Below, in pieces: positions 1 to 36,904 of a stretch of DNA of 64,000 bases. The stretch is from Ignavibacteriales bacterium. GTDB taxonomy: Bacteria > Bacillota_I > Bacilli_A > RF39 > UBA660. The translations under genes were made by a program, and so were the position numbers. Each line of letters begins with the position of its first letter. Position 1 is the first letter of the stretch. Under the pieces are notes generated by a model that did not search any database, was not told the DNA's origin, and saw nothing but the letters and a program-made list of their open reading frames with translations. The DNA lies in assembly GCA_050259235.1 (NCBI GenBank), contig JBLNAG010000002.1, positions 88,893 to 152,892 on the forward strand. Reading direction: 5' to 3'.

Positions 1-129
1 CAAAGGTAGAAATGGCATGATTGATTCAAGAACTACGACCAATAAAGCGACTGAAACACCCATTAAAGGATTACTAGTTTGAATTAAACCCTTTAAGTAT
101 TCAATAGTAAGTTCAATTGTTTCTCTCAT
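1..129 (-). CDS. DedA/TVP38-family membrane protein, N-terminal fragment (gene continues beyond window start)
   Basis: Reverse translation from 129 gives MRETIELTIEYLKGLIQTSNPLMGVSVALLVVVLESIMPFLPL. A hydrophobic helix followed by an E...PFLP motif is typical of DedA/SNARE-associated proteins. The ORF runs off the window. Confidence 0.4.
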   Translation of the reverse strand, partial: MRETIELTIEYLKGLIQTSNPLMGVSVALLVVVLESIMPFLPL

Positions 130-201
130 GTTTCACCTTCTATACTAATAACATTATAATACAACCGTTCGCATAATACAATTAAAAAAGTAAGATACAT
201 C

Positions 202-483
202 TTACTTTTCTAAAATCCAGCTTTCATATCCACCTATAATATTAATTGTTCGATATCCCAAACTATTTAATAAATTGCACATTCTTACACTCTTTATACC
301 CTTTTGACAATATATATAATACATTTGGTCTTTTGATAAATACTTACTAGGATTATTAATTAATAAATCGTATGGTATATTCCTAGAATTCGGAATGTGA
401 TTACTGTTATAATTTTCTGCACTTCTTATATCGATTATTGAAATATTGTTTAATTTTAATAATTCTGATATAGAAATATTCAT
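202..483 (-). CDS. single-domain rhodanese-like sulfurtransferase
   Basis: 93 aa. Active-site loop Y-C-Q-K-G-I-K-S with catalytic Cys. Rhodanese-like beta-alpha layout (IIDIRSAENY...HIP.S.NIP). Confidence 0.6.
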   Translation of the reverse strand: MNISISELLKLNNISIIDIRSAENYNSNHIPNSRNIPYDLLINNPSKYLSKDQMYYIYCQKGIKSVRMCNLLNSLGYRTINIIGGYESWILEK

Positions 484-530
484 TTAACCACCCTACGATA
501 TTATATGACGGTCAAATAAAGTGCGTTAAT

Positions 531-2795
531 TTATTCGTCTTCACTAAAGAAGTCATCAAAGAATTGATCATCTGTAACAACAGGTTTATTCTTAGGTGTA
601 TCCGCAATAGGATTCTTTTCCAATTGTGGTTTTTCTTCTTTCTTTTCAACAACCGTTTCTACAACTTTTTCAGTTACAGGTTGAACCTTAATTTCCGGTT
701 CAATTTCCGGCTTAACTTCTTTCTTAATTTCAGGTCTCTTAACAACTTTAAATTCATCTTCAAGCTTTGGAACCACTTTTTCACTCTTCTTTTCTTCCAG
801 AGTTGGAATTGAAGGAATTGTAATAATTTTTGGCTCCTCTTTTGGTTGAACAGGAGTAACAAATCTTGTTTTAGCTTCAGATTCAACTTTTCTCTTTTCA
901 GCTTCACGACGATCTTCTTCCTCTAATTCTGCTATTTTAGCATCAATTCTCTTAACCAAATCATCCATATTCAAGCTACCCATGTCATTATTTTTATGCA
1001 TTGGAGGAATAATATTTTGTGATGATCCAGAACCAGAAGAATGATCACTTAGTGAATTAATTAATCTATTTTCTTTGTCTTTTTTCTTTTCATCAACATA
1101 TTTTTTTAAGTCAAATACTTCTACTGAACTCTTAGTTCTAATAGGATAAATGGACTTGTCATACTTTTTACCCCAAGCATTCATATTTTCCAATTTGAAA
1201 TTTGGAGTCATTTCCGTTTTATAAGGCATCATTCTTGTACGGATAACTACAATTGACCATTTTTTTAATCTTTGTAAATCACTAACTGTAACAAGTGGTG
1301 TAGAAACAGTCTTATCTTTATCTTTAGATTTTTCTTCTCCACACATCTTACTTATTTCTTCTAGGGCTGCAATTTCACTACTTATTAAGTAAATGATATT
1401 ACCACAGTTACCTTTGATGGTTTCTCCATTTTCTTTGCCATATACTTGATATAATTGAGCAAAGTTTTGAATAATGAAAGTAAATCTAATAGCTCTACTA
1501 CGAGCAGCAGTAACCATTGTTGTTACATCTTTAAGTGGTGGCATATTTGCAAACTCATCTAATATGAAATTTGTTCTAAATGGTAATTTTCCACCATTTT
1601 CTTGTGCTACATCAATTAAAGTTTCATAACATTGTTTAATGAAAATTGTTACCAATGAATGGTATGTTTTCTTTTCATCTTGTACAACAATAAAGACTGC
1701 TGTTTTATGTCTACCTATATCTTTCATATCAAAATCACTTCTTGAAAGCATTTCAGATAGATTTTCACGAGAAGAGAATAATTTAATTTTTTGTTTAAAT
1801 ACTGATAAAATACTACTCTTTGTTTCATTTGGCGCCATCAACGTACTAGCAACATTTATGTATGCTGGTGAAGTTTGACTTTTATCACTATAATATTCTT
1901 TCATATATGTGCTATTGCCATATTTTTCTTCACCAACAGTAGTCATTAAATTAATACTATTTAAGTTAATTTCATCTTCCTTAGCATCTTCAAACAAAGC
2001 TAAAGATAATCCTGCAAAATAATCTGCAGATGTCTTTTCCCAGAAAGGATCTTGTCCTTGAGCTGCTTCATCATAAAGAATATTCATTGCTAAGTCATCT
2101 AATAATTCGTTAGCTTTATCAGGGTTTCCTTCCCTATATAATTTATAAGGTAATGATAATGGATTCCATGAATTACCTTTTTGAGGTTCACGGAAATTTA
2201 ACAGTACTATGTTATATCCCTTTTCACGTAATTCATTAGCATTTCTTTCGTATATTTCACCTTTAGGGTCAGTGATAATCATTGATTCTCCCTTTTTAGC
2301 TAATATCTTAACCATTGGTTGAACCATCATTTCAGTTTTACCAGAACCAGTGGCCCCAATAACTAAACTATGATATTCACCGTCATCAACCCATATTTCT
2401 TTACCATTATTGATAAGAGGAATACCTGCAGCATCAGCCTTTTCTTGTGCTGGATATACTCTTCTAAGTTCTTTTTTCATTTCACGGTCAGTTGACCATC
2501 TTGAATATCCTTTTTCTTTTTTTGCACCAGATGCTAAACCAAAGCCTTTTTCTCTTTCGAAGAAGTATGATGATACACTCATCATAATAGCAATTAATGC
2601 AAAGAAGAAGAATACCAAAGTAGGTCCAATATATTCTGATGTGAAGGCAGGAAAAGGATTAAATCCATGCAATAGACCAAATTCTGCAAATGAAGAGATA
2701 TTAAGTATTGCTATGGCTACCATATATAATAATATTATACAGAATATTATAAATATAAGCCAATCTTTAGGTTCTGCTCTAAATTTAAATTTCAT
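531..2795 (-). CDS. type IV secretion coupling protein (VirD4/TraG/TcpA-like T4CP)
   Basis: 754 aa. Two N-terminal TM helices. Walker A GATGSGKT. NFILDEFANMPPL (the LDEFANL signature of VirD4/TraG). About 230 aa of K/E/P-rich low-complexity C-terminal tail ending in acidic FFDDFFSEDE. Confidence 0.8.
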   Translation of the reverse strand: MKFKFRAEPKDWLIFIIFCIILLYMVAIAILNISSFAEFGLLHGFNPFPAFTSEYIGPTLVFFFFALIAIMMSVSSYFFEREKGFGLASGAKKEKGYSRWSTDREMKKELRRVYPAQEKADAAGIPLINNGKEIWVDDGEYHSLVIGATGSGKTEMMVQPMVKILAKKGESMIITDPKGEIYERNANELREKGYNIVLLNFREPQKGNSWNPLSLPYKLYREGNPDKANELLDDLAMNILYDEAAQGQDPFWEKTSADYFAGLSLALFEDAKEDEINLNSINLMTTVGEEKYGNSTYMKEYYSDKSQTSPAYINVASTLMAPNETKSSILSVFKQKIKLFSSRENLSEMLSRSDFDMKDIGRHKTAVFIVVQDEKKTYHSLVTIFIKQCYETLIDVAQENGGKLPFRTNFILDEFANMPPLKDVTTMVTAARSRAIRFTFIIQNFAQLYQVYGKENGETIKGNCGNIIYLISSEIAALEEISKMCGEEKSKDKDKTVSTPLVTVSDLQRLKKWSIVVIRTRMMPYKTEMTPNFKLENMNAWGKKYDKSIYPIRTKSSVEVFDLKKYVDEKKKDKENRLINSLSDHSSGSGSSQNIIPPMHKNNDMGSLNMDDLVKRIDAKIAELEEEDRREAEKRKVESEAKTRFVTPVQPKEEPKIITIPSIPTLEEKKSEKVVPKLEDEFKVVKRPEIKKEVKPEIEPEIKVQPVTEKVVETVVEKKEEKPQLEKNPIADTPKNKPVVTDDQFFDDFFSEDE

Positions 2796-2810
2796 CTTAT
2801 TCCTCCTACA

Positions 2811-3566
2811 TCATATCTTATTACTTATTAAATGTTTTCCCCAAATTAATATGAATATTCCTAAAATAACACCAACAATAACACCTGTTAATATAATTAC
2901 AGTCATGTAATTGCCAATAAAATCTTTAATTATTATATCATATCTTTTATCATTACTATACTTAATATATATATATTCTTGTTTTGAATCTGGAGTTAAC
3001 TTCCAAGTATAAACATTATTCTTTTCATCTTCAATATCGGCATTACTTTCAATTAATTTATTATGTAGCTTAATAGTAATATTTACATCCCCCATTGCTG
3101 ATTGAGTTGGTGAACCAGATTGTAATCCATCACCATTTCCATCATCAGTTGGTTCAGCTCCATAAATGTCATTATAATAATATTCACCTACTGTTTTAAA
3201 AGTTGTAAATTTATTATTTTCAACAACATTTAAATTTTCAAATATACCATTTAAAATTGGAGAATTTGAATAATCTTTTAAATTTTTATACTTCATAGTC
3301 ATTTCAATAAATGAATTATTTTTTCCTACTCCACTATCATATACATAATTTTTATAACTTCTAATAGACTTGTATGATTTAATTCTGTTTTCGAGGAAAA
3401 CATCAATATCATCATTTCCTTGTAATATTATTTTATTTGGAATAGTAACTTTAAGTTTTTCAGTAACCACATTATTTTCATCTATCACTAAGTCATAGTC
3501 AGCACTACAACCACTTAATACTAGAACAAATATGAATAATGTTGCTAATTTAAATAACTTTTTCAT
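2811..3566 (-). CDS. lipoprotein with C-terminal TM anchor, T4SS-associated (function unknown)
   Basis: 251 aa. Signal peptide plus lipobox LSGC. C-terminal hydrophobic helix. 4-bp overlap with the upstream hydrolase gene. Confidence 0.4.
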   Translation of the reverse strand: MKKLFKLATLFIFVLVLSGCSADYDLVIDENNVVTEKLKVTIPNKIILQGNDDIDVFLENRIKSYKSIRSYKNYVYDSGVGKNNSFIEMTMKYKNLKDYSNSPILNGIFENLNVVENNKFTTFKTVGEYYYNDIYGAEPTDDGNGDGLQSGSPTQSAMGDVNITIKLHNKLIESNADIEDEKNNVYTWKLTPDSKQEYIYIKYSNDKRYDIIIKDFIGNYMTVIILTGVIVGVILGIFILIWGKHLISNKI

Positions 3567-5956
3567 TTAGTTACCTCCGTCTTTCGATCAGCATTGTTGT
3601 AGAAATCATCCATTAAAACAATTTTTTCAAATCTATTACTATTACATGCTGTTGGTGTAACTACAACACCATAATCAGCACCTTTAGCTTCAGCAACATA
3701 GTATTTACAATTGCTGACATCTACACCAATAATAATTGCAATATGTTCACTATTCCACATTAAATCTCCGGCTTTAACTTTTGAAATAACACTTGGATCT
3801 GATGCATCTACCTTATCATCAGTCATATTCCCTTGATTAGTAGAACCTTGAGCATTTTCTATAAAGTAACTTGCTTTATATCCACCATTTGTAATAGACC
3901 AAGCAACAAATCCACTACAGTCTAATCCATCTGGCCACGTAGAACCAGAAGGTTGTTTATCGGTACCACTTGAACCAATTTTTCTAGCACAACCCCAGTT
4001 TTCACTGATACCTTCATACCAATACTTACCACCATAGAAATATGGAATTATAACTCCCATATCACTAGATAAATATTTTGCAGCTGCAACTACACCTGCA
4101 CGAGTACCATATCCAGCAGCTGCTACTTTACTCTTTAAAGTGGTTTCTTTGGCAGCGAGTTGTTCAGCAGTATACATATTACAAGTCATTGCACCTGCTA
4201 ATGGATTTACTCCACCTTGTGCAATACCATTTAAAACTGGAGCAGGATCAATCTTTCTTTTTTCCTCATCCCAAATTTCAAAATGTAAATGTGCCCCTGT
4301 AGAATTACCAGTACTTCCTAGTAAACCTATTTGTTCACCAGCACTTACTTTATCTCCTACTTCAACATCTACTCTATTTAAATGGCCATACAAACTATAA
4401 TATTCAAATTTGCCATCTTCATTTATATCATGGGCAATAACAACATGTTTACCATAACCAGCAGTTGGGTTACCACTGATATCTGAGACAGCCGTTTGAA
4501 CAACACCAGTTGCTATTGCACTAACAGGAGTATTCTCACAACCACCCCATGAAAAATCTATTCCTAAGTGATTACAATTAGACTCTCCAGTCCATTCTCC
4601 ATTAACAAAACATTTAGCAGTTCCTAATTGGTACCCCCGTGTGACATAATCTTGCCAATCTTCCCCGGAGCCAATCTGAACTGGTAATGAGGTCATCCCC
4701 CGTATTCGTATGGTTGAATTTCGAGCATCACCCAATAAATACAAGTATGAGTCCCGCATTCCAAAAATAGAATCAACTATATTATCAACTTCTGTTTTTT
4801 GTCTTTGGGAAAGAGCATCATAAAATTGAAAATTAAGTAAATTATAATATTCTGTACTTGCATCTTCTACTTTTAATAAACGATCCTTAAAACGAAGTGG
4901 AATGTATACATTTTTTAGATATTCTATATATCGATCGTAATCAAGATATTTTACAAGCATTGGAATAGCTACCCATTGATAACCTTCTGGAGCTTCTCCC
5001 ATATAAGAACAGTCAAAATTTAATACTGAATTATCAATAATATATTTTATATTTGCAATAAAACTATCTTGTACAGCTTCATATTTAACATTTGATAATT
5101 GTGATTCAATATAACCAGCATTTTCTTCTTTTGCATATGACCATATCGAGGAAGCTAAATTAAGTAAATTGATTGCACCAACAGCATCCTTAGTAGTATC
5201 AGTAAAACCAGTTTCTAATTCCAAAACTATTGAATGCAATAAATCCCCTGCAGTATCTACCAAATCTCCCCATGCACTTGGATTAAATATATTTAATCCA
5301 GATGGAGCCTTCGTACATAACGTATTAAATCGTGTCCCAATTAAATGACCCACTAATTTCTTTTCACCAGGCCATAATGTATAAGCACTGCCTATATTAT
5401 CCAAAGCAACTTTATAAAAATCCCTTGTTTCTTCTTCTTCTACTGCAGCAGGACCTTGACTATTAAGTTCCTTATTACATTTAGATTCATCGTAATCAGG
5501 ATTATCTTTTGAACATTTATTATCTGGTGTATAAATAGTAGTATCAATCATTTTTGAGTAATGGGCTGTTGCAGCTAAAATTGCCACATCAAATTCACCT
5601 TCTGAATAAGGGTATTCATTAAATCTTTGGTATTCATTCTTTAATGCAATGAAATAACTATCTTCATTTGTAAACCAACCATTACCTGTTACTAAATTAA
5701 GCATTTTTTCAGATGTTGTGACAACAAATTCCCCAACACCTGCAAAAAAGGCTTCTATTTTTTCGCCTATATACATAATCGGAAAGATAACAATGCACGC
5801 TACTAGTAATCCTAAAAGTACATTACCAATAACAGGCATAGCTGCTCCCAAGGCCATTATAATCATTCTAATTCTTTTTACTTTTTTAATCTTATCTTGA
5901 ATAGAATTGCCTTTTTTATTATTTCCGCCAAAACCAAACATTGTTATCACCACCAA
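3563..5956 (-). CDS. conjugation-type bifunctional peptidoglycan hydrolase (M23 peptidase + NlpC/P60/CHAP domains)
   Basis: 797 aa. N-terminal TM. M23 motifs HxxxD and GAHLHFEIW. C-terminal Cys-His papain-like region (LDCSGFVAWSI ... SEHIAIIIG). Sits between VirB4 and VirD4 like CwlT/TcpG/Orf14. Confidence 0.7.
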   Translation of the reverse strand: MVVITMFGFGGNNKKGNSIQDKIKKVKRIRMIIMALGAAMPVIGNVLLGLLVACIVIFPIMYIGEKIEAFFAGVGEFVVTTSEKMLNLVTGNGWFTNEDSYFIALKNEYQRFNEYPYSEGEFDVAILAATAHYSKMIDTTIYTPDNKCSKDNPDYDESKCNKELNSQGPAAVEEEETRDFYKVALDNIGSAYTLWPGEKKLVGHLIGTRFNTLCTKAPSGLNIFNPSAWGDLVDTAGDLLHSIVLELETGFTDTTKDAVGAINLLNLASSIWSYAKEENAGYIESQLSNVKYEAVQDSFIANIKYIIDNSVLNFDCSYMGEAPEGYQWVAIPMLVKYLDYDRYIEYLKNVYIPLRFKDRLLKVEDASTEYYNLLNFQFYDALSQRQKTEVDNIVDSIFGMRDSYLYLLGDARNSTIRIRGMTSLPVQIGSGEDWQDYVTRGYQLGTAKCFVNGEWTGESNCNHLGIDFSWGGCENTPVSAIATGVVQTAVSDISGNPTAGYGKHVVIAHDINEDGKFEYYSLYGHLNRVDVEVGDKVSAGEQIGLLGSTGNSTGAHLHFEIWDEEKRKIDPAPVLNGIAQGGVNPLAGAMTCNMYTAEQLAAKETTLKSKVAAAGYGTRAGVVAAAKYLSSDMGVIIPYFYGGKYWYEGISENWGCARKIGSSGTDKQPSGSTWPDGLDCSGFVAWSITNGGYKASYFIENAQGSTNQGNMTDDKVDASDPSVISKVKAGDLMWNSEHIAIIIGVDVSNCKYYVAEAKGADYGVVVTPTACNSNRFEKIVLMDDFYNNADRKTEVTK

Positions 5957-5975
5957 TTACTATACTTTTTTTATT

Positions 5976-7760
5976 TTATAATCCGCCGCCACTACCAAAT
6001 GAATCTAATTCTTGTTCAGTTGCGACAATATTTATACGCATTCTTCTACTTCCGCATACAAATAATGCTTCTCCTTGATTATATTTCTTAATACTTTCTT
6101 TTTCATTATCATTTAAGTCAATTAACTTCGATAAATCTTCAACTGCTTGTTTTTTAAGTCCCATAACAAGGTAGTATGAAGCATTATCAAATATTGCTTT
6201 TCCTTGTGTAATAACCGCAGGATCACTAAAGTCCGTTGGTTGTTGAGTAATTATAATTGTACCTGTATTATATTTTCTAGCACGTCTTTGAACTTGCGCT
6301 AAGAAGTCAGCACCTAATGTATTATTTCCAGACAATAATACGTGCGCTTCATCAATCATAAGTACTGTATTAATAGTCTTATTTAGAGTTAATCCCCATG
6401 CATATTTCAATACGTTAAAGAATAAAGCATTTTTAATATTAGTTTCAGCATTCATTAATTCTTTAATATTGAAAACAATAAATTCACTCTTTGGACTAAT
6501 TGTTGTATGACCATCAAAATAATATTTTAATTCTTTTATAATTGGTCTTACTTTTAACTCTAATTGTTCTAATATATCTTTTTCATGACTCTTTTCTGGC
6601 ATTGATAGAAGTTTACCTCTAATAGTAGCATAAACATCTTTCATTGTTGGATAGTCAGTTGATTTGAATTTAGAAAAATCAGAATCAAAACTTATATTAA
6701 AACGACGATATGTTTCTTGAATTATTTCACTAAAGATATTAATTATATCTTCAGTTGCAGTAGGATCATAATACTTGAAAAATGCTTTGATAGTTTGAAG
6801 AGTTCTTGTAAGAATTGTATAACCTAATCCTTGTTGAAGTTCTTCTTCATCAGCGTCCATAACAACTTCAAGTGGGTTGATCATACCATATTCTCCACCC
6901 TTACCTAAGTCAATGAAGTCACCGCCATACATTTTAGCCATGTCTCCTAATTCACCTTCAGGGTCAATCGCTACAATTTGATAATCATTTCTAATATGGG
7001 TTCTTAACATTAATTTTGCAGCTGTAGATTTACCACTACCAGATGTACCTAATATAATTAGGTTAGCATTATTTCGATTATGTTCCTTCTTAATTTGATA
7101 TAAAAATTGATTGAATAAAATTACCCCTCCAGAGAAATCCACACCTAGAAGTGTTGCTAAACCAGCATCTTTAACACTGTCAAAGATAAATGGATACATA
7201 GCAGCAAGTGTTGGTGCAGGAATAGGAGTTCCTATCCTATCTTCAATATCTTGTTTAGGATAAATAGGTAAAATTGATTTTAATACTTTTTCTTGTTCAA
7301 AACGAAGTGGAAATGCTCTCATTTCCATAGCTTCTAAGTAATTTTTAATTTGCATTTTCTTACTAATTAATTGATCTTGAGAATCTGCAGTAATCATGAT
7401 ATGCATTTGGAAGTCATATATCTTAGATTGACTGCTAGCTAACATTGAAATAAAATATTCCAATGATTCATAATCTTGACGAATTCTTTCTTGAATAGTT
7501 CTATCATTTTCAGTTTGATATCTTTGTTTTAATTCAGCTATTTCCTTATTTAACATTTTACTAATAACACTAAATGGAAGCGGTATATGTTTAATAACCA
7601 CTTTAATTCCTGACATACTAGTTAATGATGCTAAATAACCAGGACTTATTATTTTGGGATAAGAAACGACTGTCAAAATACAAGCGTGTTTATCACTAAT
7701 AATAAAATCTGCTGATCTAAATTCTAACCCCTTTGGGGCAATTTGACTCTTTATATCCAT
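5976..7760 (-). CDS. VirB4-family conjugal transfer ATPase (TcpF/ConE/PrgJ-like)
   Basis: 594 aa. N-terminus IAPKGLEFRSADFIISDKHACILTVVSYPK typical of VirB4/CagE/TrbE. Walker A GTSGSGKST, IDPEGE, Walker B MIDEAHVLL. Confidence 0.8.
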   Translation of the reverse strand: MDIKSQIAPKGLEFRSADFIISDKHACILTVVSYPKIISPGYLASLTSMSGIKVVIKHIPLPFSVISKMLNKEIAELKQRYQTENDRTIQERIRQDYESLEYFISMLASSQSKIYDFQMHIMITADSQDQLISKKMQIKNYLEAMEMRAFPLRFEQEKVLKSILPIYPKQDIEDRIGTPIPAPTLAAMYPFIFDSVKDAGLATLLGVDFSGGVILFNQFLYQIKKEHNRNNANLIILGTSGSGKSTAAKLMLRTHIRNDYQIVAIDPEGELGDMAKMYGGDFIDLGKGGEYGMINPLEVVMDADEEELQQGLGYTILTRTLQTIKAFFKYYDPTATEDIINIFSEIIQETYRRFNISFDSDFSKFKSTDYPTMKDVYATIRGKLLSMPEKSHEKDILEQLELKVRPIIKELKYYFDGHTTISPKSEFIVFNIKELMNAETNIKNALFFNVLKYAWGLTLNKTINTVLMIDEAHVLLSGNNTLGADFLAQVQRRARKYNTGTIIITQQPTDFSDPAVITQGKAIFDNASYYLVMGLKKQAVEDLSKLIDLNDNEKESIKKYNQGEALFVCGSRRMRINIVATEQELDSFGSGGGL

Positions 7761-8317
7761 TAACTCAACACCGTCCCAAAATTAGTAGTTTGTCCACCAT
7801 TCAAGAAATTATCTAATATCATTCTTAAATCATCATTAGTAACTTGATGTGAAGATAATCCAGCACTAGCTAAATTATTAATTAACGTTCTAATTCGTTT
7901 ATTAATAACTTCATTATCTTTTTCTTTAAATAATAAGAAATATTCAGTATCAACAACATTGTTATTCATAAACATGTTAGCTTTATTAATATCTTCCATA
8001 ATTAATTTTCTCTTAGAAGTATTTTGAACATTGTTATATAATAACTCCAATTGTGATAAATACAAATTAATATCAACTGGTCTATCAGCAACCAAAATCC
8101 AAAATTCATAATCAATCATATTGTAGACATTTTTTAAATTACTTATAATGCTACTTTGCATATCTCTTTCCAAGATAAATATATTTCTTGGTAGAATTTT
8201 TACCCCCGTAACTTTTAAATTATTATCAAGAACAATTACACCATTTGTAATACTCTTTATTGGAATATCATCACTAGTATATTTACTTTTGTTGCTCGTT
8301 TTCTCTTTCAATGCCAT
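7760..8317 (-). CDS. T4SS-associated soluble protein of unknown function (N-terminus resembles VirB4 N-domain pattern)
   Basis: 185 aa with no TM. IPIKSITNGVIVLDNNLKVTGVKILPRNIFILERDMQ echoes the VirB4 N-domain pattern. Stop overlaps the VirB4 start by 1 nt. Confidence 0.3.
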   Translation of the reverse strand: MALKEKTSNKSKYTSDDIPIKSITNGVIVLDNNLKVTGVKILPRNIFILERDMQSSIISNLKNVYNMIDYEFWILVADRPVDINLYLSQLELLYNNVQNTSKRKLIMEDINKANMFMNNNVVDTEYFLLFKEKDNEVINKRIRTLINNLASAGLSSHQVTNDDLRMILDNFLNGGQTTNFGTVLS

Positions 8318-8615
8318 CTAGCACACACCAACCTTTCCATACGAATTTTTGCCTTGTCGTAAAAAATGTAAATGCAGACTTTAATAAAACCCTCATATTA
8401 TGATAATTCGGTATTGGTAATACCAAGAATCCTGCGATTAATCCTGGGGCGATTGCTAACAATGCCCAGGTTAAACTTTCAATTGGTAGGATTAACAATA
8501 AAAACATTGTCGCAACCAAACCAATACCAAATATAATTAAATCTTGCCAAGTAAACAATCCAAGTATTAACATTGAACGTTTTGAATTGGCTGGAATTAA
8601 AAATTCATTTTCCAT
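8283..8615 (-). CDS. VirB3-like small membrane protein (PrgI/ConD-type)
   Basis: 110 aa. Two adjacent TM helices after a short N-terminal segment. Positioned immediately upstream of VirB4 as in Gram-positive T4SS. Confidence 0.5.
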   Translation of the reverse strand: MENEFLIPANSKRSMLILGLFTWQDLIIFGIGLVATMFLLLILPIESLTWALLAIAPGLIAGFLVLPIPNYHNMRVLLKSAFTFFTTRQKFVWKGWCVLDGIERENEQQK

Positions 8616-8635
8616 TTTTTATTACACCCCTTCTT

Positions 8636-27683: not shown

Positions 27684-27757
27684 TATCTCACCCTCTTTTA
27701 TCTTACGTTAATATTATACAACATATTAAGTAAAAAAAAAAGACAAAAGTATTAACT

Positions 27758-28393
27758 TCATCTTTTACTAATTTTTATTCTCAATATTGTTTTTAATTTA
27801 TCTGCAACCACTTTCCTTGCATCTGATAAATATATTTCCTTATGAGTGAAACCTACTCTTTCATAATTGTTATCTTTTAAATACTCTTCCATTTTAATAA
27901 ATGATTCAGGCTCAGTATCATATGAACCATTATGTAAAATTTGAAGTGATAATCCTTCTGTAATTTCATCATAATAAATTTTATCCAGTAATGTATTTGG
28001 TTTTTTATTTTTAGCTATTTCTAAAGCTTTATCAAATACATCTTTATTCACAAATGAGGGTTGCTTAATCATTAGAGTATAAGCAAATTCATTCTTATCA
28101 AGAATTCCTTTTTTTATTTTTACTTCTATGCCCTTTTCAGTTAAACTCCATAATCCTTCAAGTGGATAGACCGTATATTCAAAATATCCATCTGGAGTAA
28201 AACCATTTCGAGGCATCATTTTGATGACATAAGATAATTGATATAAAACTTCAATGTCCTTTGCAAAGGCCTCGCTGTTTGGATTACCAATACCATTTAT
28301 ACAAATAAAATTATGTTTTGAAATATCAATTACTTGTGGTTTATCCTTTACACCATATAATTCTTTTTCTTGTTTTTTATATTCATATTTCAT
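27758..28393 (-). CDS. GyrI-like small-molecule-binding domain protein (putative); start trimmed to avoid tRNA overlap
   Basis: The track ORF extends to 28507 and overlaps the tRNA-Leu. The internal ATG at 28393 (MKYEYKKQEKELYG...) has an AGGAG RBS 8 nt upstream. The beta/alpha pattern suggests a GyrI-like fold, weakly. Confidence 0.35.
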   Translation of the reverse strand: MKYEYKKQEKELYGVKDKPQVIDISKHNFICINGIGNPNSEAFAKDIEVLYQLSYVIKMMPRNGFTPDGYFEYTVYPLEGLWSLTEKGIEVKIKKGILDKNEFAYTLMIKQPSFVNKDVFDKALEIAKNKKPNTLLDKIYYDEITEGLSLQILHNGSYDTEPESFIKMEEYLKDNNYERVGFTHKEIYLSDARKVVADKLKTILRIKISKR

Positions 28394-28461
28394 TTTTATT
28401 ACTCCTATCATAATATTATTATATAAAAACTCATACCAAAAGTATGAGCTTAAATTCTTAA

Positions 28462-28550
28462 TGGTGCTCGTGGTCGGAGTCGAACCGACACGGTGTTTTA
28501 GCACCACTGGATTTTGAGTCCAGCACGTCTACCAATTTCATCACACGAGC
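28462..28550 (-). tRNA. tRNA-Leu (anticodon CAA), class II with long variable arm
   Basis: Reverse complement reads GCTCGTG-TG-ATGAAATTGGTAGACGTGCTGGA-CTCAAAA-TCCAG-TGGTGCTAAAACACCGTG-TCGGTTCGACTCCGACCACGAGCACCA. It has a 7-bp acceptor stem, anticodon loop CU-CAA-AA, a long variable arm, a T-arm GGTTCGACTCC and an encoded CCA. Confidence 0.85.
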
Positions 28551-30293: not shown

Positions 30294-30857
30294 TTACCCT
30301 ATAAATTCAATAATTTGTGGTAAAAAGATTATAAAGGCTACTAATATAAGGAATATAATAATAATAAATGCAATAGCTCCTTTATTACTCTTTTCTTTTT
30401 TAACCGGTTTAGTAGATACTTCAGGTGTAGGTGCAGCACTTACAGTAGTTGGTGTTGGCACTGGTACAGGTGTAACAGGTGCTTCTGGTACTGGTTGTAC
30501 TGGTGCACTTGGCATTTCTACTGATGGTACCACTGGAGTTTCAACTACAGGTGATACCGGAGCAACAGGCACACTCATTGTTGGTTGTGCATAATATGGC
30601 ACATCCACTATTTCTGATTGCACTGGTACACTTGGCATTTCCATTGTTGGCATTGCTGGAGTTTCAACTACAGATGGAGTCGGAACAACAGGAGTAGCCA
30701 CCATTGGTTGTACTGGTTGTGCATATGGTACATCTACTATTTCTGGTTGTACTGGTGCACTTGGTGTATCAAAAATTGATAATGGTGTCACCGGATTATT
30801 TGTAGTAGTACTTGGGACTGTTTGATCATTGATAAATTCTTTATTTTCTGGGTTCAT
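30294..30857 (-). CDS. proline/valine-rich repeat protein with C-terminal membrane anchor
   Basis: 187 aa. Imperfect repeats of (P/S)VVETP.(M/V)P(T/S)(M/V)EMPS.PVQ.EIVDVPY. C-terminal TM AIAFIIIIFLILVAFIIFLPQII. Confidence 0.5.
   Translation of the reverse strand: MNPENKEFINDQTVPSTTTNNPVTPLSIFDTPSAPVQPEIVDVPYAQPVQPMVATPVVPTPSVVETPAMPTMEMPSVPVQSEIVDVPYYAQPTMSVPVAPVSPVVETPVVPSVEMPSAPVQPVPEAPVTPVPVPTPTTVSAAPTPEVSTKPVKKEKSNKGAIAFIIIIFLILVAFIIFLPQIIEFIG
30490..30780. repeat. about 130-bp tandem DNA repeats (roughly 2.3 copies) inside the P/V-rich protein gene
   Basis: Recurrent blocks tactggtgcacttggcatttc...ggagtttcaactacag...ggttgtgcata(a)tatgg(c/t)acatc(c/t)actatttctg. Confidence 0.5.
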
Positions 30858-31764: not shown

Positions 31765-33243
31765 ATGAAAATAGATCAAATTAATAAAAAATTGATGAGT
31801 GATAATAAAGAGAATGTTCAAGAAATTAAAAAAAGAACTGGTGAAAGTCCAGATATAATTATTAAAAAACTATCATTTGCTAATTATACTATTCATGTAG
31901 TCTTTAATGAAACATTGTGTGATCAAACAATTATCAACAAATTTATTCTTGAATATTTTGTTGAAGCACCAATTAAATCAAGACCTGAAAATATTGTAAA
32001 ATATTTAAATGAAAATATTCCAACACGTAAAACAACAAAAATTAGTGATTTTGATACTTTGTTTTACAATCTTTATAGTGGATATACAATTATATTAATA
32101 GATGGACAAGAAGAAGCACTTAGCATTGAAACTAGGTTTATGTTAAATAGTACAATTCAAGAAGCAAAAGATGAGTATGTTTTGAAAGGATCAAAAGATG
32201 CTTTTACTGAAAACTATCAAACTAATATTGGACAAATCCGAAGAAGAGTTAAGACTGAAAAACTATGGTTAAAGGAAGTAGATTTAGGAACCAAAAGCAA
32301 AACTAAAATAGGAATTATGTATATAAATGATATTGCAAGTAAAGAATTAGTTGAACAAGTAATAAATAAAATTGAAAACATTGAAATTGATGCTATTCTT
32401 GGTAGTAATTACATAATAGACACAATATCAGAAAATAAGAGAAATGTTTTTCCAAATTATTTATCAACCGAAAGACCAGATTTAGTTGCTGCAAATCTAT
32501 TAGAAGGTAGAATTGCTATTGTTATTGAAAACATGCAATATGTCGTTGTTATACCTGCCGTGTTTGTTGATTTTTTTCATAGTACTGAAGATTTATATCA
32601 AAAATCGATCAATACTACTTATACCAGAATTATTAGAGTTATAGCTTTATTAATTACTTTACTAGTACCTGCTATTTATATAGCTATTACTACTTTCAAT
32701 CAAGAAGCTATTCCGGAAAATTTAATAATCAACTTTGCAGCACAAAGAAATGGCGTACCGTTTCCGGCAATAGTTGAAGCTATATTAATGATTATTACTT
32801 TTGAAATATTACGAGAGACAAATCTAAGAATACCATCAACATTAGGTAGTGCTTTATCAATAGTTGGAGCAATTGTCTTAGGAGATGCTGCCGTAACAGC
32901 AGGAATTGTATCTCCAATTATGGTTATTGTAGTAGCTATTACTTCTATTAGTGGTTTGACAGTATCTTCATCAGATATAATTAACGGAATTAGATGGTGG
33001 AGAATTATCTTCATTGTGTTAGCATCTATAACAGGACTACTAGGGGTATTTCTTGCCGGTATTTTATTTGTAGTCAACTTAGCAAGCATGAAATCATTTG
33101 GTATTCCTTATCTTGCACCACTTGCACCTTTTGATAAAGATAATCAAGGTAACGCTATTTTCCTCTCCGATAAACGTAAATTTTTCAAAAGAAATTCATT
33201 AACAGCTAAAAAAAATTTATATCGTAGCAAGGAGGATAATTAA
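31765..33243 (+). CDS. spore germination protein, GerA-family A subunit
   Basis: 492 aa. ...ILGSNYIIDTISENKRNVFPNYLSTERPDLVAANLLEGRIAIVIENMQYVVVIP... is diagnostic of GerAA/GerKA. C-terminal TM helices. Confidence 0.8.
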   Translation: MKIDQINKKLMSDNKENVQEIKKRTGESPDIIIKKLSFANYTIHVVFNETLCDQTIINKFILEYFVEAPIKSRPENIVKYLNENIPTRKTTKISDFDTLFYNLYSGYTIILIDGQEEALSIETRFMLNSTIQEAKDEYVLKGSKDAFTENYQTNIGQIRRRVKTEKLWLKEVDLGTKSKTKIGIMYINDIASKELVEQVINKIENIEIDAILGSNYIIDTISENKRNVFPNYLSTERPDLVAANLLEGRIAIVIENMQYVVVIPAVFVDFFHSTEDLYQKSINTTYTRIIRVIALLITLLVPAIYIAITTFNQEAIPENLIINFAAQRNGVPFPAIVEAILMIITFEILRETNLRIPSTLGSALSIVGAIVLGDAAVTAGIVSPIMVIVVAITSISGLTVSSSDIINGIRWWRIIFIVLASITGLLGVFLAGILFVVNLASMKSFGIPYLAPLAPFDKDNQGNAIFLSDKRKFFKRNSLTAKKNLYRSKEDN

Positions 33244-34472
33244 TGAAAAAAATAAAAATACTTATTATATTATTGCTTATTTCCCTTACAACTGGGTGTT
33301 GGAATTATAGAGAATTAAATAATTTAGCGATAGTTAGTGCTATTGGAATCGATGAAGAAGATGGCGTTTATAATGTAAGTGTTCAAGTTATGAATCCTAG
33401 TCAACAAAGTAGTAACTCAAAGTCTGGAGGTTCTAGTAGTCAAACTACACCTGTTGATGTTTACGAAGGAAAAGGTAAATCCATACTTGAAGCAATAAAT
33501 AGTATCTTATTAAAACAACCAAATGATATCTTTCTAGGTCATACTGACCTAATTGTTATTAGTGACCAATTAGCAAGGAAAGGAATTGAAAATTTTATTG
33601 ACTTTCTATTACGAGATAGGCAATCAAGAAAAATATTTCCAATGGTTATTATAAAAAATGCCAAAGCAAGTGATGTTATAAAACTGATTACCCCAATAGA
33701 AACAATATCTAGTAAATATATAAGTTCTACTTTAGAAGCTACAAAGAAAAATAGTGGTGTCCTTAGCGATCGACTTTTTGATGAAATATTGATGTGTTTA
33801 TTTACTAGAGGGAGAGAAGCAACAATATCAGCTATCGAATTGGTTGGTCTCCCTGAAAAGGGTGATGAATCTAAAAATCTTTCTACATCCATCCCTACTA
33901 CTTATTTCAAAATAAGTGGATCTGGTGTCCTTGTTAATGATAGATTAGTTGGATATTTTGATGAAAAGGAAAGTTTAGGATATACCTATATTAGAAATAA
34001 AGTAACTGCTTCAGTTATATCGGTTCCTTGTGATAAGGAAGGAAATTATGCTGGTGTTAAGTTAGAAAAAAGTAAAGCAAGTTTGAAGACCACTATTAAG
34101 GACGGCAAGCCAGTTGGTGAAATTACGTTAAATACTAAAGCGGTAATATCCGAATTCAATTGTAAGGTTGATTTGCTTAAACCTGAAAACATCAAAAAAA
34201 TAGAAGATGCTACAAACAAAGAATTAAAAAAAATATTGAATTATGCTGTGGTTAAAGCTCAAAAAGAACTAAAAAGCGATGTCTTTGGTTTTGGAGAATA
34301 TATTTATAAAAATAAACATAAGGACTGGAAAAAATATGAAGACAATTGGAATGAAACATTTAGTAATATGGAATACAAAATTAAAGTAACAACGGAAATT
34401 AGAAATGTTGGTGCAGCAATAGATTCATTAAAAAATTCATACAGGGGGAATCCTAATTATGGAAAAGAATAA
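33243..34472 (+). CDS. spore germination lipoprotein, GerA-family C subunit
   Basis: Lipobox LTTGCWNYRELNNLAIVSAIGID (Ger(x)C signature). 409 aa. Confidence 0.75.
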   Translation: MKKIKILIILLLISLTTGCWNYRELNNLAIVSAIGIDEEDGVYNVSVQVMNPSQQSSNSKSGGSSSQTTPVDVYEGKGKSILEAINSILLKQPNDIFLGHTDLIVISDQLARKGIENFIDFLLRDRQSRKIFPMVIIKNAKASDVIKLITPIETISSKYISSTLEATKKNSGVLSDRLFDEILMCLFTRGREATISAIELVGLPEKGDESKNLSTSIPTTYFKISGSGVLVNDRLVGYFDEKESLGYTYIRNKVTASVISVPCDKEGNYAGVKLEKSKASLKTTIKDGKPVGEITLNTKAVISEFNCKVDLLKPENIKKIEDATNKELKKILNYAVVKAQKELKSDVFGFGEYIYKNKHKDWKKYEDNWNETFSNMEYKIKVTTEIRNVGAAIDSLKNSYRGNPNYGKE

Positions 34473-36669: not shown

Positions 36670-36684
36670 AATTCATGTTCTCCT

Positions 36685-36891: not shown

Positions 36892-36904
36892 TAAATCACC
36901 TCTT

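Follow-up and report, generated by a model that had tools for sequence, protein, structure and literature searches.

A chromosome-fixed array of putative type IV secretion and pilus genes in uncultured RF39 Bacilli

Here we asked whether a block of type IV secretion system (T4SS) genes that abuts tRNA-Leu(CAA) is a mobile element or a resident of the chromosome. An earlier note on this DNA (a stretch of 64 kb, the window) had seen no recombinase, relaxase or prepilin peptidase with the block, and had proposed either (i) an element reaching beyond the left edge, where its relaxase and integrase would lie, or (ii) a relaxase-independent T4SS relying on a chromosomal PilD-type peptidase. We are confident that the roughly 24 genes at positions 531 to ~27683 form a single co-directional array that is fixed in the chromosome between ScpA-ScpB-tRNA-Leu(CAA) and rhodanese-RmuC-RNase R-SmpB, and that it is passed on vertically in a large clade of uncultured Bacilli with small genomes and mostly of gut origin (order RF39, family CAG-822 at the least). 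Judging from its gene content, the array appears to combine a domesticated monoderm conjugation-type T4SS with a type-IV-filament (Tad-like, DUF5411-type) pilus module. The flanks are marked by two features:

202..483, minus strand: rhodanese gene (PF00581, 1.2e-16), opening a conserved housekeeping flank
28462..28550, minus strand: tRNA-Leu(CAA), part of a conserved flank

The VirD4 gene is the last of the array and is followed, as had been noted, by the rhodanese gene and then by a DedA/VTT gene that is cut by the window edge. A contig with an identical VirD4 gene reaches ~10 kb beyond this edge and encodes rhodanese, DedA, RmuC, RNase R, CapA, SmpB, an unannotated 907-aa protein, an acetyltransferase and CTP synthase. 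These ~10 kb, kept in most fetched relatives, contain no integrase, no relaxase and no copy of the tRNA-Leu 3′ 28-mer (2–3 mismatches allowed); since they hold housekeeping genes only, alternative (i) is refuted. Beyond the tRNA, the window continues with ScpAB and housekeeping genes. In six metagenome loci (L084, L085, L088, L146, L152 and L161) the tRNA lies directly after ScpB, with ScpA-ScpB-tRNA-Leu immediately ahead of the array, and in L141 the tRNA moves together with an inverted ScpAB. Queries of 28 and 18 nt from the tRNA 3′ end found no second copy in the window with 2–3 mismatches allowed, in agreement with the earlier observation; the only direct repeats in 1–29 kb are those between two paralogous giant genes, and composition shows no abrupt break. 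We therefore rejected tRNA-Leu(CAA) as an attachment site, as it travels with ScpA-ScpB and its 3′ end is unrepeated. The idea of an inserted element is likewise unsupported, since both flanks are syntenic, the tRNA belongs to the ScpA-ScpB flank, and divergence of the T4SS genes has tracked that of the chromosome.

The absence of mobility genes from 1–28550 was confirmed and extends to the rest of the window. Recombinase, relaxase, transposase and Peptidase_A24 families were missing among gene-like ORFs of at least 80 aa at 200–31500 (Pfam, E ≤ 0.01), in an NCBIfam scan covering most of these ORFs, and among the ORFs scanned in the remainder of the window, which as absences hold to the limit of Pfam and NCBIfam sensitivity. 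No A24 G[GA]GD-type, HUH, His-triad or HxLRH[ST] recombinase motif turned up when the whole 64 kb was scanned in six frames (ORFs of at least 80 aa). Genes for a relaxase or a prepilin peptidase could lie elsewhere in the genome. Recurrent unmatched ORF clusters in 160 loci were hydrolases, lipoproteins and housekeeping genes. The 552-aa protein at 53330–54988, described previously as prepilin-type, does have a canonical prepilin N-terminus (PF07963, 9.9e-8; TIGR02532, 5.4e-8).

Relatives of VirD4 were confirmed by tblastn in at least 567 stretches of GTDB species-representative genomes, and those whose names are informative belong to RF39 (family CAG-822), an assignment that rests on the names of a few relatives. 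The array is also present on complete chromosomes of 1.26 and 1.49 Mb. Across 80 fetched GTDB loci the gene order is usually shared and the chromosomal neighbors are the same, with rhodanese following VirD4 in most GTDB loci and RmuC, RNase R and SmpB found in 44/80, 29/80 and 24/80, many loci being too short to reach them. VirB4 distances correlate with those of RmuC (Mantel r = 0.71) and RNase R (r = 0.83), as do VirD4 distances (r = 0.82 and 0.87), and the control comparison of RmuC with RNase R gave r = 0.87 (p = 5e-4 in each case). The mean pairwise distance is 0.18 for VirB4, 0.25 for RmuC and 0.33 for RNase R, so VirB4 evolves more slowly than either neighbor. Fifteen genes compared with the closest relative (L082) have dN/dS values of about 0.02–0.2, and these array genes are under purifying selection. 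No plasmid VirB4 in PLSDB exceeds 30% identity, and DUF5411 is without a plasmid match there. When the isolation of the T4SS was checked among 1.84 billion representatives, one full-length cluster was found at 70%, the next at 44% and 41%, and the rest at or below 34%. We rejected the block as a mobile element stripped of its integrase and relaxase: it is a vertical chromosomal locus that keeps one position across hundreds of species. The surviving reading is alternative (ii), a T4SS without a cis-encoded relaxase, best seen not as an odd integrative and conjugative element (ICE) but as a clade-wide domesticated chromosomal system. Its T4SS half comprises:

531..2795, minus strand: VirD4-type coupling protein, the array's last gene, with a Lys/Glu/Pro-rich C-terminal tail
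2811..3566, minus strand: 251-aa lipoprotein with a readable lipobox and a C-terminal TM segment
3563..5956, minus strand: M23 peptidase-domain cell-wall hydrolase (PF01551, 8.8e-24) with an N-terminal membrane segment
5976..7760, minus strand: VirB4 ATPase (NF045975 positions 295–891, 1.9e-104)
7760..8317, minus strand: 185-aa VirB4 N-terminal-domain protein (NF045975 positions 96–276, 1.9e-13)
8283..8615, minus strand: VirB3-like protein (NF045975 positions 6–94, 0.049)
8636..10639, minus strand: VirB6/TrbL-like polytopic channel protein (PF19597, 1.6e-9) with a long variable C-terminal extension
10664..11540, minus strand: two VirB2-like T4SS pilin paralogues, of 100 aa (11238–11540) and 160–170 aa (10664–11176)
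11565..11593, minus strand: perfect sigma-70-type promoter-like site (TTGACA-17-TATAAT, 12/12 match)

The VirD4-like protein matches PF02534 (4.5e-56), PF10412 and PF12696, and passes the cut-off of the NCBIfam CD1115 family (NF045973; 285.7 bits, cut-off 250). Its identity is 55–82% among the best 80 of the at least 567 confirmed GTDB stretches. The VirB4 ATPase, 74–97% identical to its relatives with a dN/dS of 0.02, also matches the NCBIfam CD1110 family (1e-50) and the VirB4 components-like protein 4AG5 in the PDB (6.8e-56). Against NF045975, the 894-position model of mycoplasma ICE VirB4, a VirB4 of this type is divided here over three ORFs, and the split between the VirB3-like and VirB4 N-terminal ORFs is retained among relatives; the 185-aa product carries a precomputed TraC-like annotation (PF26593). 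The VirB6/TrbL-like protein matches the mycoplasma ICE families MMCAP2_0566 (1.8e-16) and Mbov_0396 (1.9e-13), and these matches, like that of VirB4, score below the equivalog cut-offs. The VirB2-like pilins form a hairpin of two TM segments around a charged loop (KEDEIKK) and match the full T4SS_pilin profile PF18895 at sub-threshold E-values of 0.048 and 0.065; the same profile gave 13 matches in a mixed test set (best E 1e-4), and relatives have one to four copies per array. The M23 hydrolase is a putative VirB1 analogue, in a region that varies among relatives, many of which have an M23+SpoIID hydrolase there instead. The 251-aa lipoprotein has no family match in Pfam or NCBIfam, is weakly conserved (24–53%) and in some relatives duplicated, and is a possible candidate for a VirB8-type scaffold. 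The site at 11565..11593 lies upstream of the VirB2-like pilin gene, where the T4SS half meets the pilus half:

11607..12572, minus strand: conserved 321-aa cytoplasmic protein, putatively TadZ by gene position alone
12591..13452, minus strand: two minor-pilin-like paralogues of 140 aa each, with an N-terminal M[KR]E..-TM helix
13582..13818, minus strand: 78-aa major-pilin-like protein with an invariant MKEAAGEANLTV start, a TM helix and a Cys-rich C-terminal part
13852..13879, minus strand: promoter-like site (TTGAAA-16-TG-TATAAT, 11/12 match) just 5′ of the 78-aa pilin gene
13942..15629, minus strand: two polytopic membrane proteins (301 and 260 aa) in TadB/TadC position, candidate platform proteins
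15647..16930, minus strand: secretion ATPase of the TadA/CpaF-FlaI-VirB11 group (PF00437, 1.2e-27) with a Pro/Val/Thr-rich C-terminal tail
16934..17767, minus strand: CpaB/RcpC-like pilus assembly protein (PF16976, 1.1e-6; TIGR03177, 8.6e-9, below its cut-off)
17799..18209, minus strand: DUF5411 protein (PF17424, 1.2e-50) with an N-terminal TM helix

The secretion ATPase matches VirB11 (4e-35) and conjugation-associated TadA (3.6e-28) in NCBIfam and FlaI (9e-18), CpaF (1e-17) and VirB11 (1.5e-16) in the PDB, and is 65–87% identical in at least 531 confirmed metagenome stretches. The two polytopic membrane proteins (59–96% identity; dN/dS 0.035 and 0.061) have no significant family match and no PDB profile match. 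The 301-aa protein has at least 8000 homologous clusters, the 260-aa protein shows a faint T2SSF trace (E 0.46), and an AF2 model of a TadB/TadC-position protein (pLDDT 60.6) found no fold match. The 321-aa protein, 47–83% identical to its relatives, has no match in Pfam, NCBIfam or PDB profiles; both the platform (TadB/TadC) and TadZ assignments are candidates by gene position only. The 78-aa pilin-like ORF, which falls below the 80-aa cut-off of the main ORF list and was picked up separately, has an N-terminus unchanged across about 35 relatives, a dN/dS of 0.038 and a weak GspG-like match (E 0.061). The start MKEA[AST]GEAN[LM]TV is invariant in the pilin-like proteins and has neither an E at +5 nor the Flp G/XXXXEY motif. 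The pilins of the array do not carry the canonical class III signal, and the suggested dependence of a Tad pilus on a chromosomal PilD is doubtful in detail. The 140-aa pair is syntenic, with its N-terminal pattern and an IEKYEGYN motif conserved among relatives, and has no family match in Pfam or NCBIfam. Promoter-like sites are not enriched across the region overall, so the site before the 78-aa pilin gene is suggestive only, and the one at the junction is no more than suggestive of a promoter. The DUF5411 protein (2290 homologous 90%-identity clusters) has a conserved MKESFWG N-terminus and TM helix, and is a candidate minor pilin and marker for this type of pilus module; in Clostridia, DUF5411 is reported next to CpaF and PilC-like genes (PMC9523054). 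Four further genes form the head of the array:

18469..21999, minus strand: giant cysteine-rich secreted protein, 1176 aa, copy 2 of a tandem pair
22131..25313, minus strand: giant cysteine-rich secreted protein, 1060 aa, copy 1 of the pair, with a readable signal peptide
25325..26005, minus strand: 226-aa protein with a signal peptide and a C-terminal membrane anchor
26073..27683, minus strand: 536-aa polytopic membrane protein with a large C-terminal extracytoplasmic part, the array's first gene

The giant proteins share 41% identity, rising to 68% across the C-terminal 180 aa, and the 3′ 300 nt of their genes are 85% identical. Their slot is hypervariable, with relatives usually having one signal-peptide protein of ~760–1390 aa, mostly with 2.7–5% Cys, or nothing. 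For the 1060-aa copy, only 9 homologues were found, there was no match in Pfam, NCBIfam or the PDB, and the AF2 model failed (pLDDT 46.7). The 226-aa protein (no family match in Pfam or NCBIfam) is syntenic and 28–43% identical in all relatives except the closest one; it is conserved yet fast-evolving, with a dN/dS of 0.21 against L082. The 536-aa protein, also unmatched in Pfam and NCBIfam, heads the array in 26/29 metagenome loci that reach far enough, at 33–47% identity.

As an old vertical locus found in the same place in hundreds of RF39 species, the array is a strong candidate for an organelle of cell-to-cell contact that is central to how RF39 bacteria live, and taken whole it is probably a domesticated contact and transfer apparatus. 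A surface filament would be built by the ATPase, CpaB, both polytopic membrane proteins, the 78-aa pilin and the three minor-pilin-like proteins; together with the fast-evolving cysteine-rich giant proteins, it would contact a partner cell. The M23 hydrolase would open the wall for a membrane channel of VirB3, split VirB4 and VirB6, extended by the VirB2-like pilins, and VirD4 would feed in a cytoplasmic substrate. By analogy, we tentatively suggest that this substrate is DNA, exchanged between cells without a cis-encoded relaxase; if true, this would work against the decay of the genome in a lineage where it is already reduced. The closest analogues of the array are the machineries of Patescibacteria and of mycoplasma ICEs. 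The mycoplasma ICE T4SS also drives chromosomal transfer, and VirB4 and VirB6 of the RF39 array match the families of this system best; these ICEs have no known relaxase. No description of the combined locus was found in the literature searched.

The main alternative for the substrate, proteins or nutrients exchanged with a partner or host cell in the manner of Patescibacteria, is less likely. Its fuller version, which we also consider rather unlikely, is an interaction organelle in which the T4SS and its VirB2-like pilus would act with the Tad-like filament and giant adhesins to attach the RF39 cell to another bacterium or to host cells and move proteins or small molecules, not DNA; this would support a dependent lifestyle of RF39. 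Patescibacteria have a chromosomal, relaxase-less T4SS with arrays of VirB2-like pilins (PMC12102498), and a chromosomal, clade-wide, relaxase-less T4SS with VirB2-like paralogues has been described as unique to them among monoderms (PMC12857230; PMC12102498). The RF39 locus shares these traits, its surface proteins are hypervariable, and RF39 genomes are small, with minimal metabolism and mostly gut habitats (PMC10868615). However, VirD4 is well conserved and always the array's last gene, as in conjugative systems, whereas the Patescibacteria coupling protein is usually unlinked to virB4 and was dispensable in one species tested (PMC12102498). No effector-like genes were recognised in the array, and RF39 cells as epibionts are a supposition.

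It is doubtful that the modules are two independent systems, a Tad-like pilus for adhesion or colonisation (as in Bifidobacterium breve) and a separate T4SS, adjacent via conserved synteny only. In L138, L154 and L159 the pilus module is followed by housekeeping genes and, as far as these loci extend, by no T4SS gene, so that the two modules may function independently. Strong promoter-like sites precede each pilin gene, one exactly at the module junction, and DUF5411 pilus modules of Clostridia were described without mention of a T4SS (PMC9523054). Against this, T4SS genes are present in 27/32 metagenome loci that extend 8 kb or more downstream from the ATPase, the modules being contiguous and co-directional with short gaps in these informative loci, and constraint is similarly strong on both.

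A machine for DNA uptake (ComB-like competence) or DNA release is improbable. The Helicobacter ComB uptake system sets a precedent as a T4SS without a relaxase nearby, DNA uptake is common for type IV filaments, and a CinA gene recurs near some arrays. However, ComB-type uptake has no VirD4 coupling protein, which the RF39 array conserves, the gonococcal island, a known DNA-release system, carries a relaxase, and ComEC and ComEA were not found in the locus (Pfam). A conventional ICE with its integrase, relaxase and second att site outside the window would fit a complete conjugation-type T4SS and coupling protein near a tRNA gene, but is scarcely credible given the housekeeping genes on both sides (10 kb past the left edge, and ScpAB onward past the tRNA), the unrepeated tRNA 3′ end, the lack of an abrupt break in composition, the conserved synteny and the co-divergence with the chromosome. 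Equally hard to credit is a decaying, non-functional remnant of an ancient ICE, which the missing mobility genes would suit and the selection data contradict: every ORF is intact, dN/dS is 0.02–0.2, VirB4 is more conserved than the neighboring RmuC and RNase R, and the array is retained in several hundred species-level genomes.

G+C content is about 28% across the window. Between positions 531 and 27683 all genes lie on the minus strand with short gaps. In transcription order the array opens with a 536-aa polytopic membrane protein, a 226-aa anchored secreted protein and two cysteine-rich giants of 1060 and 1176 aa, followed by DUF5411, an RcpC/CpaB-domain protein, a T2SSE-family ATPase, two polytopic membrane proteins and a 78-aa pilin-like ORF. 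Next come two 140-aa paralogues with N-terminal hydrophobic helices, a 321-aa cytoplasmic protein and two small two-helix membrane proteins. A TrbL/VirB6-like protein, ORFs of 110 and 185 aa, VirB4, an M23 cell-wall hydrolase, a lipoprotein and VirD4 complete the order, and a rhodanese gene forms the left flank. Individually placed features are as follows.

2811-3566, minus strand, 251-aa lipoprotein, positional candidate for a VirB8-like scaffold (NTF2-like fold)
11607-12572, minus strand, 321-aa protein in the TadZ position
13582-13818, minus strand, 78-aa pilin-like ORF, below the initial 80-aa ORF cut-off
27758-28393, GyrI-like gene on the right flank
28462-28550, tRNA-Leu(CAA), followed by ScpB and ScpA

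No riboswitch or other RNA was found in the array with Rfam. The GyrI-like gene has the tRNA terminator hairpin on one side and the first array gene on the other. Because tblastn did not detect it at the same position in relatives, it is probably a small lineage-specific insertion outside the system.

Judged by its protein families, the T4SS is of the monoderm conjugation type (MPF_FATA-like). VirD4 matches PF02534 (4.5e-56) and passes the cut-off of NF045973, the C. difficile CD1115 family (285.7 bits against 250). VirB4, in which the Walker A motif GTSGSGKS is visible, has as its best NCBIfam match the mycoplasma ICE VirB4 model NF045975 (1.9e-104, model positions 295-891), with further matches to CD1110 (1e-50) and to PDB 4AG5, a VirB4 components-like protein (6.8e-56). 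Model positions 96-276 match the 185-aa ORF and positions 6-94 the 110-aa ORF. Since the three ORFs together span the 894-position mycoplasma model, VirB4 consists here of three ORFs as against one protein in that model, and this split is kept in relatives. The ATPase ORF scores 350 bits, below the equivalog cut-off of 590 bits, and by this measure VirB4 is related to the NF045975 family rather than a member of it. Assignment of the 110-aa ORF as VirB3-like is weak, at E 0.049 against the N-terminal portion of the VirB4_plasma model. The VirB6-like protein matches PF19597 (1.6e-9), and its best NCBIfam models are the mycoplasma ICE proteins MMCAP2_0566 and Mbov_0396, both below their cut-offs. 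The VirB1-like cell-wall hydrolase matches PF01551 (8.8e-24); an NlpC/P60 domain suspected in its C-terminus was not confirmed and is not claimed. The 251-aa lipoprotein has no family match.

The two small membrane proteins are each predicted to form a hairpin of two helices joined by a charged loop, a topology in keeping with VirB2-like pilins. Both match the T4SS_pilin family PF18895 over the full profile at sub-threshold scores (E 0.048 and 0.065), and 13 members of a mixed test set match it, the best, in relatives, with E 1e-4. Their assignment as VirB2-like T4SS pilins is thus plausible but sub-threshold, and a profile of the family gave chance-level matches only against PDB sequences. 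The window has two copies, and relatives have one to four per array, sometimes with extras nearby. Such extra copies lie among RmuC, RNase R and SmpB downstream of VirD4, some on the opposite strand, in five fetched relatives' loci: L042 (13215-13472 and 15786-15989), L053 (15230-16417), L058 (15645-15902), L059 (13068-14318) and L065 (14145-14381 and 17153-17395).

The pilus half can be called Tad only loosely on the basis of its sequences. DUF5411 is clear (PF17424, 1.2e-50), and in Clostridia this family has been reported in the vicinity of CpaF- and PilC-like genes (Miller et al. 2022, PMC9523054). CpaB is recognisable (PF16976, 1.1e-6). The ATPase matches PF00437 (T2SSE, 1.2e-27) and CpaF in the PDB (1e-17); it is equidistant from CpaF, FlaI and VirB11, so that it resembles the TadA/CpaF type only at the level of the ATPase group. 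For the platform candidates in the TadB and TadC positions, the sole family signal is a faint T2SSF match (E 0.46) on the 260-aa protein. PDB sequence profiles of both families returned chance-level matches only, and hhalign detected no relation between them. The AF2 model of the 301-aa platform candidate has a pLDDT of 60.6 (from a shallow alignment of 73-86% identity), and Foldseek found nothing in the PDB better than E = 4. The TadZ-position protein has no family match and a chance-level PDB profile.

The pilin starts with an invariant MKEA[AST]GEAN[LM]TV followed by a hydrophobic helix. This N-terminus contains neither a Glu at +5 nor EY nor the Flp G/XXXXEY motif, so that a prepilin peptidase may or may not process the pilin. 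Neither Pfam nor the motif scan revealed a TadV/CpaA (A24) prepilin peptidase in the window. A locus that lacks its peptidase has a precedent in B. breve, whose prepilin peptidase gene lies apart from tad. The earlier note had pointed to a 552-aa prepilin-type protein (53330-54988, minus strand), and its canonical prepilin N-terminus is confirmed here, which suggests a PilD/ComC-type enzyme elsewhere in the genome. The gene stands alone between polA and polC, and its product has a faint FGE-sulfatase-like region. In a relative's locus, L159, the pilus-module pilin is directly followed by a protein of 926 aa (7513-10293) whose prepilin start reads G|FTLIE. Given this adjacency, large canonical prepilins may work with the filament of the array. 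Each pilin gene has a very strong promoter-like site immediately upstream, in one case precisely at the module junction; as the promoter scan overall performed no better than on shuffled sequence, these two sites are suggestions only. Some relatives carry an insertion between the TadC-position gene and the pilin that encodes a polytopic protein of about 810 aa (L104, 10915-13359; L125, 11287-12438 and 12662-15076), and L109 and L143 have similar insertions. The inserted protein is probably a YfhO-family match, which would fit a role in glycosylation. The L125 insertion also carries IS605/TnpB-like ORFs by sequence reading.

The slot between the 226-aa gene and DUF5411 is hypervariable. In most cases it encodes a single protein with a signal peptide, about 760-1390 aa long and scarcely alignable across species, with a Cys content that is mostly 2.7-5%. 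The slot is empty in seven loci and holds a tandem pair in the window and in L162/L163. Also variable are the hydrolase/lipoprotein region, the VirB6 C-terminus and the VirB2-like copy number. Such a pattern would be expected of surface-exposed parts that contact a partner. The two giants of the window are 41% identical overall and 68% identical over the C-terminal 180 residues. For the giant protein, a PDB sequence search was empty, nine homologues were found and the AF2 pLDDT was 46.7. The 3' 300 nt of the two genes (18469-18768 and 22131-22430) share 85% DNA identity, far above the remaining gene, and this could permit recombination or gene conversion between the paralogues.

The pilus and T4SS modules are usually joined and can be separated. 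Of 32 metagenome loci that extend 8 kb or more downstream of the ATPase, 27 continue with T4SS genes. In two of the other five, insertions push them beyond range, and in L138, L154 and L159 housekeeping genes follow the pilus module.

The absence of mobility genes from the window, as reported in the earlier note, is borne out by our searches. Pfam and NCBIfam gave no recombinase, transposase, relaxase or A24 peptidase match in the scanned window ORFs, and a six-frame motif scan of the full 64 kb (ORFs of at least 80 aa) found no A24 GxGD-type, HUH, His-triad or HxLRH[ST] motif. Relaxase families were also without a match in the 10 kb left of the window, and tyrosine, serine and DDE recombinases were absent there among precomputed Pfam matches. 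A weak Replitron_HUH match (five members of the mixed test set, best E 0.067) was taken as noise because it was not reproduced when ten window proteins were rescanned at E<=10. In or near the arrays of about 160 fetched loci, 439 ORFs resemble none of our reference proteins; they form 155 clusters. The recurrent clusters hold no mobility gene and consist of an alternative M23+SpoIID hydrolase, lipoproteins, CinA, a YhcG-type nuclease and housekeeping proteins. This follows from a Pfam scan of 141 representatives covering the top 25 of 164 families, which excludes recurrent rather than rare mobility genes.

It had also been proposed that an element with relaxase and integrase continues past the left edge. 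An identical VirD4 protein occurs on a 41.6-kb public contig (L001) that extends about 10 kb beyond window position 1. After the rhodanese gene this contig encodes DedA/VTT, RmuC, RNase R, CapA-like, SmpB, a 907-aa protein, a hexapeptide acetyltransferase and CTP synthase. Because these 10 kb hold housekeeping genes only, with neither a tRNA or tmRNA nor a copy of the tRNA-Leu end found, the proposed continuation is set aside and the element stops at the left. The 907-aa protein (18318-21041 on this contig, after SmpB, about 5.5-8.2 kb left of position 1) matches nothing in Pfam or NCBIfam, and tblastn did not detect it in the other loci; it looks specific to the strain or species.

Attachment sites fared no better. 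As first noted, the window holds no further copy of the tRNA-Leu 3' end, whether as a 28-mer or as an 18-mer, and L001 holds none of the 28-mer. Direct repeats within positions 1-29 kb occur only between the two giant paralogues, and none bracket the block. ScpA-ScpB-tRNA-Leu(CAA) immediately precedes the 536-aa gene in six metagenome loci. A seventh locus, L141, has ScpAB in inverted orientation, and the tRNA has moved along with it. The tRNA is therefore part of the conserved flank, belonging to the ScpAB unit, rather than an attachment site.

Relatives of VirD4 number at least 567 confirmed, with one genome per GTDB species, and the best 80 are 55-82% identical. All are uncultured MAGs of the "Bacilli/Tenericutes/Mollicutes" type, some of the records evidently mislabelled, and carriers include closed chromosomes of 1.26 and 1.49 Mb. 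The informatively named relatives are Ca. Faecisoma merdavium (GTDB genus CAG-878), Firmicutes bacterium CAG:822 and Ca. Fimihabitans, all three in GTDB order RF39, family CAG-822 (PMC8035907). RF39 is a small-genome lineage of minimal metabolism, found mostly in gut habitats (PMC10868615). Proteins 99-100% identical to those of the window are wrongly tagged "Ignavibacteriales bacterium" (ACM3O4_018xx) in public records, and several RF39-type MAGs are labelled "Muribaculaceae" or "Actinomycetes". One MAG, JAEEJY01 (Tb.RUG.180), has two VirD4 loci on different contigs (L028 and L035), which could be a true second copy, strain mixing or a binning artefact.

An ICE would be expected to be patchily distributed; instead, most fetched loci share a position between the same housekeeping genes. 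The common order in most GTDB loci is the 321-aa protein, small membrane proteins, VirB6, VirB3-like, VirB4 N-domain, VirB4, (hydrolase, lipoprotein) and VirD4, with rhodanese, (DedA), RmuC, RNase R, (CapA) and SmpB as common neighbours after it. With the ATPase as query, at least 531 metagenome stretches were confirmed, and the longer loci keep the order of the window for the other half.

As identity to the window protein alone is a poor test of co-divergence, we used Mantel correlations on all pairwise distances. These gave r = 0.71 for VirB4-RmuC, 0.83 for VirB4-RNase R, 0.82 for VirD4-RmuC and 0.87 for VirD4-RNase R, with 0.87 for the control RmuC-RNase R (p = 5e-4 for every comparison). 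VirB4 has diverged less (mean distance 0.18) than RmuC (0.25) and RNase R (0.33), and across several hundred species-level genomes it is more conserved than these two neighbours. In comparison with L082, the closest relative (dS about 0.5-1.1), VirB4 has a dN/dS of 0.02. The pilin, DUF5411 and the 301-aa membrane protein fall at 0.03-0.04, the ATPase at 0.10, and the giant and 226-aa proteins at about 0.2. The closest VirB4 on a PLSDB plasmid reaches at most 30% identity, and DUF5411 gave no match among these plasmids. Among 1.84 billion representatives at 50% identity, the VirB4 family has one full-length relative at 70%, then two at 44% and 41%, the others being at 34% or less. The 120 matches listed for DUF5411 are all in-clade at 68% identity or more, and the query reached no ICE-borne versions outside the clade. 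The array is a chromosomally fixed, vertically inherited and selectively maintained T4SS-plus-filament system with no mobility genes in cis.

Component homology suggests that a partner cell would be contacted by the filament together with the giant proteins, and that the hydrolase would open the wall. VirB3, VirB4 and VirB6 would form the membrane channel, extended by the VirB2-like pilins, and VirD4 would recruit a cytoplasmic substrate. The constant linkage of VirD4 and its conservation point to export of such a substrate, rather than ComB-like uptake.

For the putative function we tentatively favour relaxase-independent DNA exchange. No relaxase is known for mycoplasma ICEs, the closest characterised families, and their machinery moves chromosomal DNA; a reduced-genome lineage would, moreover, gain from recombination. 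The mycoplasma ICE T4SS (CDS5 VirD4, CDS17 VirB4, CDS16 VirB6-like) provides the best NCBIfam matches for RF39 VirB4 and VirB6, and its hosts are likewise reduced-genome relatives within Bacilli. Mycoplasma ICEs have no cell-wall hydrolase. Unlike them, the RF39 locus has a hydrolase, VirB2-like pilins and a pilus module, scores below the equivalog cut-offs, and is immobile in a fixed position with no DDE transposase and no element ends. The monoderm set of VirB1-like hydrolase, VirB3, VirB4, VirB6 and VirD4 is shared with MPF_FATA systems (C. difficile CD1110/CD1115; PDB 4AG5), from which the RF39 locus differs in being chromosomal and vertically inherited, without relaxase or integrase. VirB2-like pilins are normally missing from monoderm conjugative systems (PMC12857230) and are present in the RF39 array.

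Exchange with a partner or host in the manner of Patescibacteria is nearly as likely as DNA exchange. The T4SS of Patescibacteria/Saccharibacteria (Southlakia epibionticum; Quinonero-Coronel et al. 2025, PMC12102498; review PMC12857230) is the closest analogue. It is nested in MPF_FATA, has no relaxase, carries VirB2-like pilin arrays and is essential in one species (PMC12102498, PMC12857230). Both systems are monoderm conjugation-type T4SSs, chromosomally fixed and widespread in a reduced-genome, largely uncultured lineage, with no relaxase nearby. Both have paralogous VirB2-like (PF18895-type) pilins beside VirB3, VirB4, VirB6 and a hydrolase, and in both type IV filament machinery coexists with the T4SS. 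In Patescibacteria, however, the coupling protein gene is rarely near virB4 (PMC12102498), whereas the RF39 VirD4 is tightly linked as the last gene of the array. The RF39 locus differs further in belonging to a Bacillota order and in having a pilus (Tad-like, DUF5411) module physically joined to the T4SS, VirB4 in three ORFs and giant Cys-rich proteins in a hypervariable slot.

A broader reading, which we think rather unlikely, is that RF39 depend on physical cell contact and that the T4SS-pilus-adhesin supercluster is their core contact organelle for obligate intercellular exchange, making RF39, alongside Patescibacteria, a second, independent monoderm lineage to have domesticated a conjugation machine equipped with VirB2-like pili. 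What is exchanged would be DNA, allowing escape from genome decay, or metabolites or proteins of the partner. Few uncultured Bacilli are as widespread as RF39 in the guts of animals and humans, and a contact organelle, if real, would give a concrete handle on the order's resistance to cultivation. Co-divergence with the chromosome, constraint, plasmid distance and the lack of recurrent mobility genes jointly exclude a conventional ICE as well as a decaying remnant.

Partnerships between a T4SS and a type IV pilus are represented by the thin pilus of IncI plasmid R64 and by Ced, the DNA importer of Sulfolobales, with its Ups pili; in RF39 any such function is putative. In R64 and Ced-Ups the type IV filament gathers cells and the VirB4-family machine moves DNA (PMC12102498). 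Unlike the RF39 array, R64 is plasmid-borne with a relaxase and Ced is an archaeal import system, and the components are not orthologous. With Tad/Flp type IVc pili (Caulobacter Cpa, Bifidobacterium breve tad) the RF39 module shares the CpaF/TadA-group ATPase, the CpaB/RcpC-domain protein and small pilin-like proteins with N-terminal hydrophobic helices. It differs in having no Flp G/XXXXEY motif, no T2SSF platform or TadZ that sequence or a low-confidence model would reveal, and no TadV in the window, and in being joined to a T4SS. DUF5411 it shares with the DUF5411-associated CpaF/PilC-like system predicted in Roseburia, Ruminococcus and Eubacterium (PMC9523054).

Among monoderms, VirB2-type pilins together with a non-conjugative, lineage-wide T4SS are described only for Patescibacteria (2025 review, PMC12857230), and non-DNA-transfer roles of Gram-positive T4SSs are a long-standing question (PMC12857230). 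The RF39 locus would be a second such case, in a different phylum, with a tightly linked coupling protein and a joined pilus module. A full-text literature search found no relevant paper on an RF39 secretion or pilus system, an earlier description being possible, and the RF39 comparative-genomics literature examined mentions no secretion systems, pili or conjugation. If contact-dependent exchange is true, it provides a hypothesis, open to testing, on how a prevalent gut lineage lives and why it is unculturable, and a natural comparison for the domestication of conjugation machines. It would also indicate a system that may be ancestral or sister to the mycoplasma ICE machinery.

The remaining window is housekeeping, including germinant receptor genes, PolA, PolC, SerRS, ArgRS, RF1 and others. 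A GerA/GerB/GerC germinant-receptor operon (35584-39584) is confirmed by Pfam, and a second apparent one (31765-35571) was recognised by reading alone. The lineage has been described as mixed with respect to sporulation, and genes for sporulation and germination seem to have been kept here. VirD4 (531-800) and the ATPase (15647-15900) end in long C-terminal tails of low complexity with abundant Pro, Val, Thr, Lys and Glu, and a separate 187-aa protein (30294-30857) consists mostly of PVQPEIVDVPY-like repeats.
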